Positions 1 to 56,169 of a DNA stretch of 64,000 nt are shown in pieces; the first letter of the stretch is position 1; the number at the start of each line of letters is the position of its first letter. Source of the DNA: Dehalococcoidia bacterium (GTDB lineage Bacteria > Chloroflexota > Dehalococcoidia > Bin125). The position numbers and the translations under genes were made by a program. Where the stretch lies: the NCBI GenBank assembly GCA_963555985.3, contig OY820591.1, forward strand, positions 832,001 through 896,000. Direction: 5' to 3'. The notes beneath the pieces are model-generated. The model ran no database searches. It saw only the letters and a list, made by a program, of their open reading frames with translations, and was not told the origin of the DNA.

Positions 1-376
1 AGGTCGCGCCGAGCGCCTCGAACTCCGGCTCCAGGTAGCCCGCACCCACGCCCAGAATCATGCGCCCGTTCGAGAGCACATCGGCGCTGGCGAATTCCTT
101 CGCCACCACGACCGGGTTGCGCTGCGCAATCAGCACAATGCCAGTGCCGAGCATCAGCCGTTCGGTCACCGCCGCCAGATATGTCAGCACGACCGAGGGA
201 TGCAGGAAGGGCAGGTCAGGCTCCGCCGGAGAGGGCGCGACACGCGGCTTAGGCAGTACCACGTGTTCGCCGCACCAGAGCGATTCAAGTCCCGCCGCCT
301 CCGCCGACTGCGCCACGCTGCGCAGCACGTCCGGATCCGCGACGCCCGAACCGAGGCCGAAAACGCCGAATTTCAT
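1..376 (-). CDS. LLM-class (probably F420-dependent) oxidoreductase, runs off the window edge
   Basis: Not in the ORF track; manual translation from ATG at 376: MKFGVFGLG...ESLWCGEHVVLP...LGTGIVLIAQRNPVVVAKEFASADVLSNGRMILGVGAGYLEPEF. Confidence 0.85.
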   Translation of the reverse strand, partial: MKFGVFGLGSGVADPDVLRSVAQSAEAAGLESLWCGEHVVLPKPRVAPSPAEPDLPFLHPSVVLTYLAAVTERLMLGTGIVLIAQRNPVVVAKEFASADVLSNGRMILGVGAGYLEPEFEALGAT

Positions 377-51489: not shown

Positions 51490-51753
51490 ATGATCACAGT
51501 CCTCGTTCCACAGCCGCTGAGAACGCTGACAGACGGTGAGGGCGTGCTCACTGCGGAAGGACATAATCTCCGCAGCGTGATTCGGGATCTGGGTCAGCGC
51601 TACCCGGAGTTGGCCGAGCGGCTGGTGCAGAACGGACGCATCGGGCGAGGCCTGTCGCTGGCGATCAATGGTGATGTGGTGAGCACAGGTCTGATCACCA
51701 AGGTGCCGGAGGGCGCGGAGATCGCGATCGTGCCGCAGATCAGCGGCGGCTAG
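51490..51753 (+). CDS. MoaD/ThiS-family sulfur carrier
   Basis: Ubiquitin-like size with C-terminal ISGG; follows the Mo-enzyme genes. Confidence 0.85.
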   Translation: MITVLVPQPLRTLTDGEGVLTAEGHNLRSVIRDLGQRYPELAERLVQNGRIGRGLSLAINGDVVSTGLITKVPEGAEIAIVPQISGG

Positions 51754-53357
51754 AGGAGGCGTCGGAATTCACGACCGAGTGCGATGGGGAGCTCAGGGAA
51801 TTTGCCGTTGAAGTACTCGGTGATGGACCAAAGCTGGACGCGGGGATAGCTGCGATCGCCGATTCGGACGACTCCGGCGCGGGCGGCGGTCGCAGGTGCT
51901 GTGCTGCGGGAACCCGGCGGGTCCATCACAATCAGGACACCGAGATCAGCCGAGGTGGTTGGGTCTTCCATCGCTCCGATCAACTCACGGACATCCTTCA
52001 CATTCCAGTCGCCGGACTTGACTTGCGCGACGGCTATGCCGGTATCCGTCCGACGCTGCCCTGGGCCGTTCGGTTTTGAGAATCGCATCTGTCCGTCCAC
52101 ACCGCCATCGCCTCGTTGTCTTCGGTTCGGGCGAAAGCCATCCAGACGGGTCACGGCCCAGGCTTCAAACTGGAACCGATCTCTCTGGGCGAGGTCGCGT
52201 GCAGCGCCCAGATCCTGAGGCGCTCCGACAATTCGTGGAGTCACGCCCACTTCCGCGAGTCGGCTCTCAACTAGTCCGATCGCCAAGTGAGTGATGTCGA
52301 TCCCGATCCATTCACGGTTGCAGGCTTGTGCAGCGCGAATCGCTGTTCCGCAGCCGCAGAACGGATCGAGGACGACATCGCCCGGGTTCGAGGAAGTCTC
52401 AATAATGCGCTCCAGCAGCTTCAGCGGTTTCTGGGTCTGGAAGCCGCGCCATTCCTTGTACCTGTGGCTCTGGCGCACTTCGGGGATATCGGTCCAAACC
52501 GAACGTGTTCGGGACGGGTTAATCGTGAAAGCGACATCATCGTCTCTCGGGCTTTGGCCGGTGCGTCGTTCAATCCGCGCGCGACTCCTTGCTTCCTCGA
52601 CTTGTTCATGCTTGATCGAGCCGTAGAGCACGGTCCTGCCGTCGTCTTCGAGGTACTGACCCCAGCGCCGCTGCATCTGTTCCGAGATCGCGTCCTGACG
52701 CGGCAAGTGAAACGTCCAACTGTCTCCGCGTGTATAGAACAGCAATGTGTCGTGTTTGCGGGGGAAGACTTTGCTGGCGCTCGTAAGCGCGGAAGCTCGA
52801 TAGTGCCAGATGATCTCGTTTCGATAGTTCGCCTGTCCGAGTACGGCATCCAGCATGATTTTGAGGTAGTGGCTCGCTGTTGGATCACAATGCAGATAGA
52901 GGGAACCGGTCGTCTTGAGGACGCGCTTCATTTCGCACAGACGGATCGCCATCATCGCCAGATAGGCCGTCATCTGGTTTGTGCCCAAAGCGCGTACGAG
53001 CGATTCCAGTAATTGTCCAGCCTCAATACAGGGCGAGGAGTCGCTGAGCAATTCAGTCAGAGCCAATTCAGATTCGTGGCCCCAGTGCCATGTGTCCTCA
53101 TAGGCCAGAATCTGTGAGGGCGCAGCCCGCCCGGATTCGTCTTCGAAGAGCACGTTGTAGTCGGTGTTCGAGTTGAACGGCGGATCTAGATAGATCAGGT
53201 CGATGCTCTCGTCGGGGATCTGTTCCCGCATGACGGAGAGGTTGTCGCCGAAGAACAGCGTTCCCCTGAGATGATCAGCGGCTGGCATTTCGACCTCCGC
53301 CTCAAACTCTAGCTCGCTCTGCCGTCGCAGCACGGTCGGCGCCTTGAAGGTGCTCAA
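51750..53357 (-). CDS. Beta-class DNA methyltransferase fused to a C-terminal Mrr-like endonuclease domain
   Basis: YLDPPFNS, TQKPLKLLERII, VLDPFCGCGT; C-terminal QFEAWAV...DGGVDG...AQVKSG; start may be ATG 53288. Confidence 0.88.
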   Translation of the reverse strand: MSTFKAPTVLRRQSELEFEAEVEMPAADHLRGTLFFGDNLSVMREQIPDESIDLIYLDPPFNSNTDYNVLFEDESGRAAPSQILAYEDTWHWGHESELALTELLSDSSPCIEAGQLLESLVRALGTNQMTAYLAMMAIRLCEMKRVLKTTGSLYLHCDPTASHYLKIMLDAVLGQANYRNEIIWHYRASALTSASKVFPRKHDTLLFYTRGDSWTFHLPRQDAISEQMQRRWGQYLEDDGRTVLYGSIKHEQVEEARSRARIERRTGQSPRDDDVAFTINPSRTRSVWTDIPEVRQSHRYKEWRGFQTQKPLKLLERIIETSSNPGDVVLDPFCGCGTAIRAAQACNREWIGIDITHLAIGLVESRLAEVGVTPRIVGAPQDLGAARDLAQRDRFQFEAWAVTRLDGFRPNRRQRGDGGVDGQMRFSKPNGPGQRRTDTGIAVAQVKSGDWNVKDVRELIGAMEDPTTSADLGVLIVMDPPGSRSTAPATAARAGVVRIGDRSYPRVQLWSITEYFNGKFPELPIALGREFRRLL

Positions 53358-53417
53358 GTTTGGTCGACCGAACGGATTGCGCGGGAGGCCAGCCTCTAAA
53401 TCGCACGCGCAGATCGA

Positions 53418-53753
53418 CTACGGCCCTGTGCTCAACCCGAGGTGCAGTTGCAGTGCCCGGCTCAAGGCACGTAGGCCTGACTCGTCTAGCTCTCCGATCT
53501 TTGCGTCGATGCGCGAGCGATACACGGTCGTCACCTTGTCAACCATGATCTCGGATAGTTCGCGCAAGCCGTTCTGTGCGCTCGGCTCGACGAGAATTCG
53601 GAGACCAGAATCCTCTGTCAGCATCGTTGTTAGACCACAGATGGTGACGGATCCTGACGAGCCGAATTGGGTGTTCTGGACGATGACGCAGGGTCGCGGT
53701 TTGTTCAGATAGTCCCCACCACCCGCCACGATCCAGATCTCGCCGCGCTTCAC
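53418..53753 (-). CDS. PemK/MazF family toxin (endoribonuclease)
   Basis: MKRGEIW...KPRPCVIVQ, LTT, R..VEPS..NGL...SEIMVDK, IGELD. Confidence 0.92.
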   Translation of the reverse strand: MKRGEIWIVAGGGDYLNKPRPCVIVQNTQFGSSGSVTICGLTTMLTEDSGLRILVEPSAQNGLRELSEIMVDKVTTVYRSRIDAKIGELDESGLRALSRALQLHLGLSTGP

Positions 53754-55138
53754 TCGTCGTCGATCTCATCGAGCGGGATCGAGACTGATTCCACCCAGGC
53801 CATCTCCTCGTCCGCGTGTGGGTTGTTCTCCAGAGCCCGCGCTTCCCGCTGCATTGCCGCTTCGAATTCGGGCGAGGCGGGATCCATGTCCAGGACCTTC
53901 ATGGTCTCTCGCTTCTTGGCGACCGTCTCATTCTCTGCCGTCAGCAGCGCAATTGACGCCGTGAAGCCGTGCAGATAGTTTGACCCTCCTACCGGACCAA
54001 TCTCCCCGTTGCAGAAGAAGCCGGCGGTCGGTGTGGGACCGAACGCCTCCGTCAGTGCGGCGGCGTCGTGATCCGGCGCTCCGAAGAGGCCGCGGCCGCG
54101 ACCGTTGCAGGAACAGAGCAGCGCGCCCAGGACTTCCTCACCAGGATCCAATTTTGAGCGGAGATCGGAGAGCCGCGTGCGCAGATCGTCGTCGGCTGCG
54201 CCAGCGTCGCGGAATTGGAACTGAAAGGTTTGGCCGAGGCGGGGGACTTCGTTGATCGCCACTGCGCCGGACTCGCGGTCGGCGCCCATCACGTTGCGGA
54301 TCAGGAAGTCGCCGCGCTCGTGCGACTCGCGGTATTCGTCCATGGCCAGCCCGGCGAGCAAATTGCGAGCTGCGCGTTCGCGCGTGGCGTCGTCGAGCGC
54401 GAACAGCGTCTCGGTCAGCACTTCCAAAGCCGGACGCGAGCCCAGAGTCTTGATCATGTTGGCTTCGCAGTCGGTCACGATCCAGGGCTGACCCAGCGGC
54501 TCCGCGCCCTGCGCGACCACGGGCCGCACGCGCACGCCGCCCAGACCCATCATCGCTGCTCCGTTCATTAACACGCGGTCGTCAATGAAGACGGCCGCGC
54601 CCTGCTGTTGGCGGTGCGACGAGGCCATCCCGCCCAGCAGGGTCAGCTCGGGCCGCAGCTGCTGGAGATGCGCCACCAGCTGGTCGGTCATGATCGTGAA
54701 CGGGTTCGTGAACATCAGCCAGACATCGGGACCGTCCGCCAGCGGCGCGAACAAGTCGTCGGGCATGTGCTGCGGATCGATGGCGATCGAGGTCAACGCG
54801 GCGTCGGGCAAGTGAAACGCCAGCAACGCCATCGCGGATCCGTCCTCCGCCTCGAGCGACGATCCAATTACCCGTTGGCCCGAGGCTCCAATCAGGTGAC
54901 GCGCGCCGGTGGCGCTGCGCAGCCGCTCGATCATCTCGCTGTAGTGGCCGGCGTAGCGCGAATCGATGAAGACCAACAGCAGCTCCGGGGCTGTCTCCAG
55001 GTTCAGGGCGTTGACGGCGCTTTCACAGGCGGCCTCCCAATCGGGATCGAATGCCAGCGACGCGGCGGCCGCCGACTCTCCGACCTGCGTGTGCGCGACT
55101 CCCGGCGCAGATGCTTCGCGGATCGTCTCGATGCTCAT
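53750..55138 (-). CDS. FIST/NosP-like sensor protein with an in-frame C-terminal MazE/DUF3018-like extension
   Basis: LLGGMAS, VVAQGAEPLG, FLIRNVMGAD, FQFQFRD, SCNGRG, GFFCNGEIGPVG...HGFTAS, then about 60 extra aa ending DEEMAWVESVSIPLDEIDDE; stop overlaps the mazF start. Confidence 0.85.
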   Translation of the reverse strand: MSIETIREASAPGVAHTQVGESAAAASLAFDPDWEAACESAVNALNLETAPELLLVFIDSRYAGHYSEMIERLRSATGARHLIGASGQRVIGSSLEAEDGSAMALLAFHLPDAALTSIAIDPQHMPDDLFAPLADGPDVWLMFTNPFTIMTDQLVAHLQQLRPELTLLGGMASSHRQQQGAAVFIDDRVLMNGAAMMGLGGVRVRPVVAQGAEPLGQPWIVTDCEANMIKTLGSRPALEVLTETLFALDDATRERAARNLLAGLAMDEYRESHERGDFLIRNVMGADRESGAVAINEVPRLGQTFQFQFRDAGAADDDLRTRLSDLRSKLDPGEEVLGALLCSCNGRGRGLFGAPDHDAAALTEAFGPTPTAGFFCNGEIGPVGGSNYLHGFTASIALLTAENETVAKKRETMKVLDMDPASPEFEAAMQREARALENNPHADEEMAWVESVSIPLDEIDDE

Positions 55139-55254
55139 GTCAGCCTCCCTCTCGCCGCCGCTGCAAGGGCTTGGGCCGGATCGATGCATAATGCGATCCT
55201 GCCGTTGATCGGAGTGTAGGTGCGCATTCGCGGCTCTGGGGTAGCATCGGGAAC

Positions 55255-56169
55255 ATGTCTACTCTCACGGCGGGAGAGCTCGACGAACTCTGCCAAGCGG
55301 CACGTTCATTGGCGGAGCGCGCAGGCGTCGTATTGCTTGATCGTTTTCAATCTTCGCTGCATATCTCGTACAAAGGTCAGAGCGCGCACGATCCTGTCAC
55401 CGAGGTCGATCACGCGATCGAGGACATGGTGCGTGAAGAAGTGCATCAGCTCTTCCCCGAGCACGGTGTGTTGGGGGAAGAGCGCGATGAGGGAGGACCA
55501 AGCTCGGCCGAAGTGGTCTGGGTGATTGATCCGCTTGACGGCACCAGCAACTTCATCAATGGCATCGGCGTGTTCGCCTGTTCAATCGGCATCCTCGAGC
55601 GCGGCTTGCCTATTGCGGGCGCAATGTTTTTGCCCACGAATCGCTACCTGCGCCCGGGCGTGTATCACGCCAGACGCGGTTCCGGCCTTTATTTCGACGA
55701 CGAACGCGCCGATTGCACGCCGCCGTCGGTACAGTCGGCCAGTCGGCTCAGCACGGTTCCTGGCGGTACTGGCGGCGTGACTGGCCCGGCCGGGCGACGA
55801 TTCGGCGTAGCGCGGACATTCGGCAGCGCCGCCGCCGAACTCGCCTTCGCCGCCGAGGGTTCGGTCCAGATGGCGCTGTTCGACGGACCGCAGATTTGGG
55901 ACGTGGCCGGCGGTGTGGTGCTCTGTCAGGAAGCCGGACGCGCCATCTTCACTCGCCACGGGCGATCGCAGCCGTGGCAGCGGTTCACCCACTTCGGACA
56001 GGATCAGCCCGAGCCCGTACTGATCGAGAACCTGCGTGGCTGGCGCGACGGTCTCGTAGCCGGAGATCCGGCGGTGTTGCCCGCGGTCGCAGAAGATCTC
56101 AGCCGCGAGCAAGGTATCCGGGCCAGCGCGCGCCGCGCGGTGAAGAAGACACTGCTGCGCAAGGAGTAG
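55255..56169 (+). CDS. Inositol monophosphatase family protein
   Basis: VLGEE, WVIDPLDGTSNF, GSAA, WDVAGG. Confidence 0.9.
   Translation: MSTLTAGELDELCQAARSLAERAGVVLLDRFQSSLHISYKGQSAHDPVTEVDHAIEDMVREEVHQLFPEHGVLGEERDEGGPSSAEVVWVIDPLDGTSNFINGIGVFACSIGILERGLPIAGAMFLPTNRYLRPGVYHARRGSGLYFDDERADCTPPSVQSASRLSTVPGGTGGVTGPAGRRFGVARTFGSAAAELAFAAEGSVQMALFDGPQIWDVAGGVVLCQEAGRAIFTRHGRSQPWQRFTHFGQDQPEPVLIENLRGWRDGLVAGDPAVLPAVAEDLSREQGIRASARRAVKKTLLRKE

Follow-up and report, generated by a model that had tools for sequence, protein, structure and literature searches.

A FIST protein with a MazE-like tail in front of mazF at a toxin-antitoxin hotspot in a Dehalococcoidia bacterium

How is a MazF toxin kept in check when no antitoxin gene of its own stands beside it? 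This question is raised by a locus in a stretch of 64,000 nucleotides of a Dehalococcoidia bacterium (assembly GCA_963555985.3, contig OY820591.1, positions 832,001 to 896,000 of the forward strand; hereafter the window, in which all positions are counted), where the gene of a FIST-domain protein runs on past its usual end and its stop overlaps the start of a PemK/MazF gene. The original prediction described this locus as a sensor fused to a MazE/DUF3018-like antitoxin tail, and as a candidate signal-gated toxin-antitoxin (TA) system. In the present study, the anatomy was found as described: the fusion is a single in-frame open reading frame (ORF) of 462 aa on the minus strand (55138-53753), the GTGA overlap of stop and start is read directly from the sequence, the toxin gene is matched over its full length by PemK_toxin, and no ORF for a separate antitoxin lies at the junction. 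The signal-gated interpretation was not supported. We consider it probable that a type II TA cassette stood behind the FIST gene, that a small deletion turned the C-terminus of its antitoxin into a tail of the FIST protein, and that the fused chain now acts as the antitoxin, without autoregulation. The parts are ordinary, namely a TA pair of the PF11455/PemK type and a FIST protein; it is the join that is new. The features concerned are as follows.

ATG at 55138 to TGA at 53752-53750, minus strand: FIST-tail ORF of 462 aa, made of the FIST protein and a 62-aa tail (A401-E462).
53939..55138, minus strand: FIST core, residues 1-400 (FIST_N and FIST_C), ending in ...HGFTASIALLT (T400), as delimited by Pfam and the orthologues.
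53903..53938, minus strand: 12-codon linker A401-T412 (AENETVAKKRET), the junction of FIST gene and cassette, without counterpart in the unfused alleles and without an ATG, GTG or TTG codon.
53753..53902, minus strand: antitoxin remnant M413-E462 (MKVLDMDPASPEFEAAMQREARALENNPHADEEMAWVESVSIPLDEIDDE), a putative toxin-binding module by PF11455 similarity.
53750..53753, minus strand: GTGA overlap of the stop of the fused ORF with the start of mazF (putative translational coupling), read from the sequence.
53418..53753, minus strand: mazF/pemK toxin gene, 111 aa, GTG start at 53753, apparently intact (PemK_toxin).

The front part of the fused chain is a complete FIST protein. Both FIST_N (residues 53-233, 98 bits, E 8.5e-28) and FIST_C (residues 237-382, 80.7 bits, E 1.4e-22) were found over the Pfam threshold (PF08495 and PF10442), and the nearest solved fold to the model of this protein is the eukaryotic FIST protein FBXO22 (Foldseek E 3.6e-13). 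An alternative reading of 479 aa is possible from 55189; the start at 55138 is favoured, since all seven members of the 90%-identity cluster of this protein begin with MSIETIRE and a Shine-Dalgarno (SD) match precedes it. The core is 72-78% identical to orthologues of 404-425 aa that end just past residue 400, and the close orthologues stop 2-12 residues past ...ASIA(L/V)LT. Here 62 further residues follow beyond this family end, first the linker AENETVAKKRET and then MKVLDMDPASPEFEAAMQREARALENNPHADEEMAWVESVSIPLDEIDDE. In the AlphaFold2 (AF2) model of the full-length protein (predicted local confidence, pLDDT, 86.9), the last FIST strand covers residues 393-402 and the tail follows as three helices (404-416, 423-437 and 442-452) with a disordered end, the pLDDT being 75-84 for residues 401-440.

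What is this tail? Its last 60 aa match PF11455 (MazE-like, formerly DUF3018) with 18.0 bits and E 0.0029, below the gathering threshold of 22 bits, tail positions 17-50 aligning to positions 25-58 of the 65 in the profile; the closest full-length standalone antitoxin, from the sister species G041, also falls just short of this threshold with 21.9 bits. A phmmer search with the tail among 1.84 billion representatives gave five matches at E up to 0.001. Three of these (P0130-P0132, E 1e-4 to 6e-4) are standalone antitoxins of 74-84 aa, which reach 29.8-54.7 bits on PF11455, and a standalone homologue of about 50 aa is not among the five. The antitoxins of G041 and of a second sister species, G066 (72-73 aa), are the closest full-length relatives. 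They align without gaps to tail residues 411-462 up to the C-terminus, with 17-18 of 52 residues identical, and carry a Met (SMPIW...) at the position of M413 in the tail (TMKVL...); their MazF proteins are 52-55% identical to that of the window (56-59 of 107 residues). By the weak profile match, the phmmer matches and these alignments, the claim of a MazE-like tail was borne out, and the tail from residue 411 on is, to judge from its sequence, the C-terminal 52 residues of a PF11455 antitoxin.

About 22 N-terminal residues of a standalone antitoxin are missing (profile positions 1-24 are unmatched), and the FIST protein with its 12-aa linker stands in their place. The tail had been thought to lack the IQIWVPD strand of such antitoxins. 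This strand is present, although degenerate (MKVLDMDP at the W-x-P-D strand, against MPIWTLDP in the closest standalone antitoxins), and the loss is of the roughly 22 residues before it. Standalone PF11455 antitoxins have about 65-85 aa, while the module here forms residues 411-462 of a 462-aa protein; its position upstream of mazF is the usual one. The tail thus departs from PF11455 in score, in N-terminal part and in size, yet as regards toxin binding it most likely works like a PF11455 antitoxin.

Other searches with the tail returned little. None of the solved structures matches it by sequence, a word-based protein search with the tail alone gave no candidate, and the same kind of search with region 401-462 among proteins of 254-809 aa gave only the window's own cluster, out of 13 candidates. 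The two remaining phmmer matches were set aside: P0129 (2751 aa, E 6e-15) was judged spurious, being a giant repeat protein with repeated TVNVTDLD..AP.F motifs, and P0128 (178 aa) was rejected as an independent fusion, as a different FIST_C and the very same tail as in another allele of the cluster (P0121) meet in it at the GFFCNGEIGPVGG motif, and it is a probable chimera or fragment.

Two other antitoxin-like proteins with unusual architecture were seen. In a metagenome-assembled genome titled Candidatus Symbiobacter sp., a 102-aa protein (genome contig, L031:731-1036, plus strand) lies upstream of a MazF 45% identical to that of the window; its last ~35 residues align to the MazE-like tail and its N-terminal part is unrelated and without Pfam match, so that it appears as a further toxin-binding module joined to a different front end. 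The antitoxin of G024 (L005:1097-1477, minus strand; 127 aa) has two tandem MazE-like modules (two stretches by Pfam), the second of which (..SMPIWDADPRSPDF..) shares its lineage with the tail of the window.

The toxin partner appears unimpaired. It matches PemK_toxin (PF02452) with 73.7 bits against a cut-off of 23.1, over profile positions 1-108 of 109, and retains all 18 columns that are invariant across an alignment of 10 sequences. MazF9 and MazF7 are its nearest solved relatives (E about 2e-5). It is the only PemK in the 3.33-Mb genome, and another PF11455 gene over the cut-off was not found in this genome, a weak match (E 0.05) in L001 having no antitoxin-like ORF. The other two frames over 53750-54150 hold stops and nothing antitoxin-like, neither a separate antitoxin ORF nor a hidden antitoxin N-terminus. 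In other phyla, the genes of MazF relatives (44-49% identity) are directly preceded by those of classic PF11455 antitoxins. A locus search seeded with MazF gave 7 metagenome-contig and 6 genome-contig loci, all at no more than 49% identity and without the contigs of the other fused alleles, and the 90% cluster of MazF has a single member.

Prediction of the tail-MazF complex, which had been proposed as a check, gave a favourable result. With two MazF chains and the 62-aa tail, the binding score was 0.75, and the best of three controls reached 0.17; among reference pairs, 58 of 80 solved complexes and 2 of 110 mismatched pairs attained this mark. Our own alignments were used for the tail and MazF, so that the calibration is only rough. 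The runs had at least 86% of contacts in common, and the pLDDT of the partner was at least 73. The most confident contacts were between tail residues 444-454 (EEMAWVESVSI) and MazF residues 70-78 at the dimer interface, near R20/T42, and further contacts with MazF were made by K408-R410, upstream of M413, and by T412-D417. The model supports binding of the tail to the MazF dimer.

Is the fusion present in the living population? In Logan contigs from four runs, which span 53350-54299/54305 or the whole stretch, there were no differences from the window, and the junction (53750-53950) was read without stop or indel, as the original prediction required; the runs, of which one may have given rise to the assembly, belong to one study and to three samples at most. 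In run X4, a variant contig has T>C at 53905 (T412A) as its sole change in 53750-53950. The 90%-identity cluster has seven members from several sources, of which three are fused at 462 aa (P0001, P0121 and P0123) and four are unfused at 404-409 aa (P0122 and P0124-P0126), the latter ending with AERE or AEGQESASA before the stop. P0121 and P0123 are from other sources than the window. Between the two fused lineages (P0001 versus P0121 and P0123), the linker has an identical length of 12 residues. They differ at 23 of 400 residues in the FIST core, at 9-10 of 50 in the tail from M413 on and at 7 of 12 in the linker, where AKKR is kept (Fisher's test, linker versus tail p 0.013, tail versus core p 0.0015; these are protein-level counts on related sequences and indicative only). 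The contrast of 10/50 with 7/12 differences indicates that the tail is constrained and the linker nearly free, the tail changing faster than FIST, as antitoxins usually do.

The alleles are otherwise close to each other. Fused P0121 differs from unfused P0124 and P0126 at only 7 of 400 core residues, and P0001 has 16-17 differences from unfused P0122 and P0125, fewer than the 23 that separate it from the other fused alleles. The cassette-bearing allele is, by these comparisons, an accessory and strain-variable variant that has persisted for some time. Since the tail is better conserved than the linker, MazF keeps its invariant residues and is the sole PemK of the genome, and the complex model supports binding, the cassette is likely still a working TA pair.

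A stretch of 34 nt (53991-54024, encoding part of the GFFCNGEIGPVGG motif) is hyper-conserved. Contigs of many organisms align there and then break off, and the contig depth rises to 236 against about 18 beside it; chimeric metagenome contigs such as P0128 probably arise at this stretch.

Where did the tail come from? We surveyed 64 other species genomes of the same family with FIST as the query. An orthologue was found in 62 of them, and none runs past query residue 409 without a stop; apparent read-through in G051 and G064 (to 434 and 424) was rejected, as stops were included and there was no real similarity beyond the FIST stop. Fused alleles thus occur in the protein's own cluster and in none of the family orthologues found. 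The region behind FIST is nevertheless rich in cassettes. By our comparison of the FIST and PemK coordinate tables, 17 of the 62 species have a PemK gene at most ~400 bp away from the FIST 3' end, 13 of them in tandem (that of G059 being interrupted) and 4 convergent, and G022 adds a 46-aa MazF remnant beyond these 17. Where FIST and mazEF stand in tandem, the antitoxin (72-127 aa) has a gene of its own, whose start lies roughly 10-35 nt past the FIST stop, so that a short deletion would be enough for a fusion. The slot between the FIST 3' end and a convergent ThiS-family gene is variable, being empty (for example in G013 and G006) or holding a methyltransferase, other accessory genes or mazEF. 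The slot cassettes carry at least five antitoxin lineages, as assigned by eye from alignments and ORF translations, and MazF identities among five of these cassettes are 43-54%, while FIST stays at 72-78%. With mazEF in 17 species, in several lineages and in both orientations, the sequences mark the site behind FIST as a TA integration hotspot across the bacterial family, and a strong hotspot of this kind behind one conserved gene is hereby documented.

Among the best 120 of 3365 homologues, only one other protein combines FIST with PF11455, namely P0057. Frame 1 of the G022 locus accounts for its residues 1-262 at 98.5%, and the G022 antitoxin ORF in frame 3 for its residues 261-361; P0057 then continues past the antitoxin stop, and the MazF of G022 is broken. 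P0057 was therefore rejected as a second designed fusion; it is a frameshift read-through of a decaying cassette. It shows, at the level of sequence, that read-through fusions arise easily behind FIST and can be by-products of decay.

The whole FIST neighbourhood is rich in TA genes. By the same comparison of coordinates, a second PemK site was found 2-6 kb away on the start side of FIST in 12 of the 62 species, beyond inositol monophosphatase and luciferase-like genes (for example G055:C44:16618-16920 and G072:C1:576585-576884); two of these genes are incomplete, that of G059 being interrupted by stops and that of G051 partial at a contig end. Beside convergent cassettes, toxinless antitoxin-like sequences were seen in G007 (L009:3326-4015, minus strand) and G019 (L010:714-914, plus strand), which look like remnants of earlier cassettes in the slot.

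From this distribution we infer the following course of events. In a tandem FIST-mazE-mazF arrangement, a small deletion would have taken out the stop codon of FIST, the short spacer behind it and some 22 codons from the beginning of the antitoxin. Ribosomes that start at FIST would then read through the tail, which has no stop before it, and each FIST chain would bear one MazF-binding module. FIST-tail, mazF and perhaps the methyltransferase gene beyond it would be transcribed from the FIST promoter, and coupling at the GTGA overlap would drive the translation of mazF. The FIST tail would wrap the MazF dimer and block its RNA groove. With the N-terminal part of the antitoxin gone, its own operator control and conditional cooperativity have probably been lost in favour of dependence on the FIST promoter, and the fused allele may be kept by ordinary TA selection. 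The original prediction had also considered a chance fusion made by insertion of a TA cassette at the FIST stop codon; a TA cassette at this stop is closer to the evidence than signal gating, and deletion in an existing tandem fits better than insertion.

Several points weigh against this account. The deletion route rests on relatives that are only 33% (tail) and 52-55% (MazF) identical, and insertion or recombination of an already truncated cassette may be an alternative route. A linker of 12 codons makes an open frame in two lineages weak evidence for selection on the fusion itself. Neutralisation by the tail is a prediction from the complex model, and since MazE-MazF complexes of other families have been solved, a pass of this model may reflect likeness and not binding by this particular copy. 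Finally, M413 is kept in all three fused alleles, which is compatible with a short internal product.

This last point leads to the explanation that antitoxin function resides in a 50-aa peptide whose translation begins at the internal ATG at 53902 (MKVLDMDP...), the FIST extension being a harmless by-product of a lost stop. The original prediction had pointed to this ATG, near 53901, as a possible antitoxin start. Besides the conserved Met, there is a purine-rich AAGAAGCGAGAG just upstream of it, its pairing at -5.5 kcal/mol is near that of some real neighbouring starts at -5.8, and the predicted core contacts of the tail (444-454) lie downstream of M413. However, the Met is a lineage residue found in SMPIW of G041, G066 and the second module of G024, and its conservation needs no start function. 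Its SD score is at background, being equalled or beaten by 31% of in-frame FIST positions, while the pairing energy of the FIST start is -12.4 kcal/mol (for a generic anti-SD motif and not that of this genome). E411D and T412A, in other alleles and in the X4 variant, alter the putative SD and spacer. A sigma-70-like promoter was not found in 51600-55400 (0 sites, against an average of 0.6 in shuffles), although this consensus may not fit the phylum. The three standalone relatives among the phmmer matches have 74-84 aa and none has about 50, AKKR, which precedes the Met, is kept and has predicted contacts with MazF, and translation of FIST yields the fused chain anyway. We hold the internal start to be unlikely. 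Since there is no stop in frame, the SD at 53902 is at background, M413 is conserved in the lineage and the upstream residues vary, we favour the view that antitoxin function resides mainly in the fused protein.

A second explanation keeps the fused chain as the antitoxin and gives it a sensory role. Ligand, conformation or stability of FIST would control the exposure or proteolysis of the tail and so the release of MazF, tethering would make this release depend on the state of FIST (ligand, fold stability, turnover), and the FIST-mazEF synteny would reflect a functional partnership of which the fusion is the extreme. If true, FIST-tail with MazF would be a natural sensor-gated type II TA. The fusion is indeed real and has persisted across two diverged lineages, tandem mazEF lies tens of bases from the FIST stop in the 13 species mentioned, which is compatible with co-transcription, and AF2 places the tail with fair pLDDT directly after the last FIST strand. 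Against this, the fusion is absent from all 62 orthologues and from 4 of the 7 cluster alleles, and fused and unfused alleles are as few as 7 core residues apart. In the manner of a hotspot, the slot also contains cassettes of opposite orientation (4 species), damaged ones (G022, G059), a methyltransferase and other accessory genes, and in about a dozen genomes a further PemK gene is found 2-6 kb away on the other side of FIST. Moreover, the linker is unconstrained, and the P0057 'fusion' is a product of decay. The proposed likeness to NosP was not upheld: NosP genes are encoded beside a histidine kinase or a cyclic-di-GMP enzyme, whereas neither is found among the neighbours of the FIST-tail locus, and NF041558, the NCBIfam equivalog of NosP, gave 11.5 bits against a cut-off of 450. 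We regard signal gating, as the original prediction had proposed it, as improbable.

Alternatively, the fusion may be one step in the erosion of a cassette, with a MazF that is non-toxic or unexpressed and a tail that is junk. Eroded cassettes do occur in the slot (the MazF remnant of G022, the interrupted MazF of G059, the frameshift and read-through of P0057), four of seven alleles have no cassette tail, and the antitoxin has lost its N-terminal part. But MazF is of full length with all family-invariant columns kept, the tail shows far fewer differences than the linker, which points to purifying selection on it, and the tail-MazF complex model passes. We therefore give decay little credence. 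An artefact of sequencing or assembly, that is a stop missed or an indel introduced in one assembly, has a negligible chance and is excluded for practical purposes by the unchanged contigs of four runs, a variant strain with one substitution only and three different 462-aa alleles from different sources, with no antitoxin N-terminus hidden in another frame, even though the assembly is of metagenome type (96% complete, 7.5% contamination) and the 34-nt stretch attracts foreign contigs and makes P0128 look chimeric.

How does the probable deletion-born fusion compare with known systems? In canonical MazE-MazF neutralisation, the C-terminal tail of the antitoxin lies along the MazF dimer. The predicted placement of tail residues 444-454 on MazF 70-78, at the dimer interface, resembles this, but the tail of the window has no N-terminal domain for dimerisation and DNA binding, and a MazF2-MazE2-MazF2 assembly and operator binding are not expected. 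With type II TA pairs of PF11455 and PemK/MazF the locus shares the toxin family, the homologous C-terminal 52 residues of the antitoxin and an antitoxin immediately upstream with start/stop overlap; it differs in that the antitoxin has no gene of its own, is shorter by about 22 residues at the N-terminus and forms the end of a FIST protein of 400 aa. A putative TA listed for a Pseudomonas syringae plasmid pairs a DUF3018 protein with a MazF-like one (PMC6354349). A further likeness is to the FIST-mazE-mazF loci of sister species (such as G041, G066, G024, G055 and G060), which agree with the locus in FIST orthologue, slot (before the ThiS-family gene), orientation and cassette superfamily; there, however, FIST has its own stop, the antitoxin of 72-127 aa follows ~10-35 nt on, and identities are 33% for the tail and 52-55% for MazF.

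In concept, the locus also resembles systems in which a sensing domain is linked to the control of a toxin or MazF-like protein. CapRel is a fused toxin-antitoxin protein. The CRISPR-Lon protein CalpL with the MazF-fold CalpT is reported as a sensor-coupled toxin system (bioRxiv 10.1101/2021.12.06.471393). The present locus differs from both in giving no sign of sensing, cleavage or release, in its FIST partner, in a linkage to the antitoxin module and not to the toxin, and in being strain-variable. In the library searched, we found no paper that pairs a FIST domain with an antitoxin, and a screen by title of the papers listed for related terms likewise gave none. In the databases, the FIST-antitoxin architecture was seen only in the window's cluster and in the frameshifted P0057, among the homologues and matches listed.

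These results bear on the modularity of antitoxins, in that a toxin-binding module survives, apparently under selection, without its own N-terminal domain and on an unrelated protein of 400 aa. The locus offers a natural test case for whether such a module alone is sufficient, and for the fate of a TA pair that is without autoregulation and driven by a host gene. It also carries two warnings for annotation: an 'orphan' MazF may hide its antitoxin as the tail of the upstream gene, and a FIST-plus-PF11455 combination such as that of P0057 may be a frameshift read-through and no designed architecture.

Beyond the toxin gene lies one further feature on the same strand.

51750..53357, minus strand: DNA methyltransferase, 535 aa, with a weak Mrr-like C-terminal region (N6_N4_Mtase).

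It follows mazF after 60 bases, matches N6_N4_Mtase with E 2.5e-39 and Mrr_cat with 19.2 bits, under the Pfam cut-off of 21, and is also matched by the type II/III methyltransferase models of PADLOC, in which MazF and FIST-tail had no match. Orthologues of this methyltransferase (68-79% identical) lie directly behind FIST, without mazEF, in G021, G002 and G011. At third codon positions the GC content of the FIST core is 0.82; the accessory segment behind it is lower, with 0.69 for linker and tail, 0.71 for mazF and 0.69 for the methyltransferase gene, and a GC dip extends over ~51750-53950. By Pfam, the flanking genes are those of an inositol monophosphatase (divergent from FIST), a luciferase-like monooxygenase, the ThiS-family protein (convergent) and a molybdopterin dehydrogenase subunit. 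A similar accessory gene of ~250 aa (...KLIDEPG.AMN...) was also seen behind FIST in two genera, at L004:703-1443 on the minus strand (G018) and at L012:3078-3830 on the plus strand (G022).

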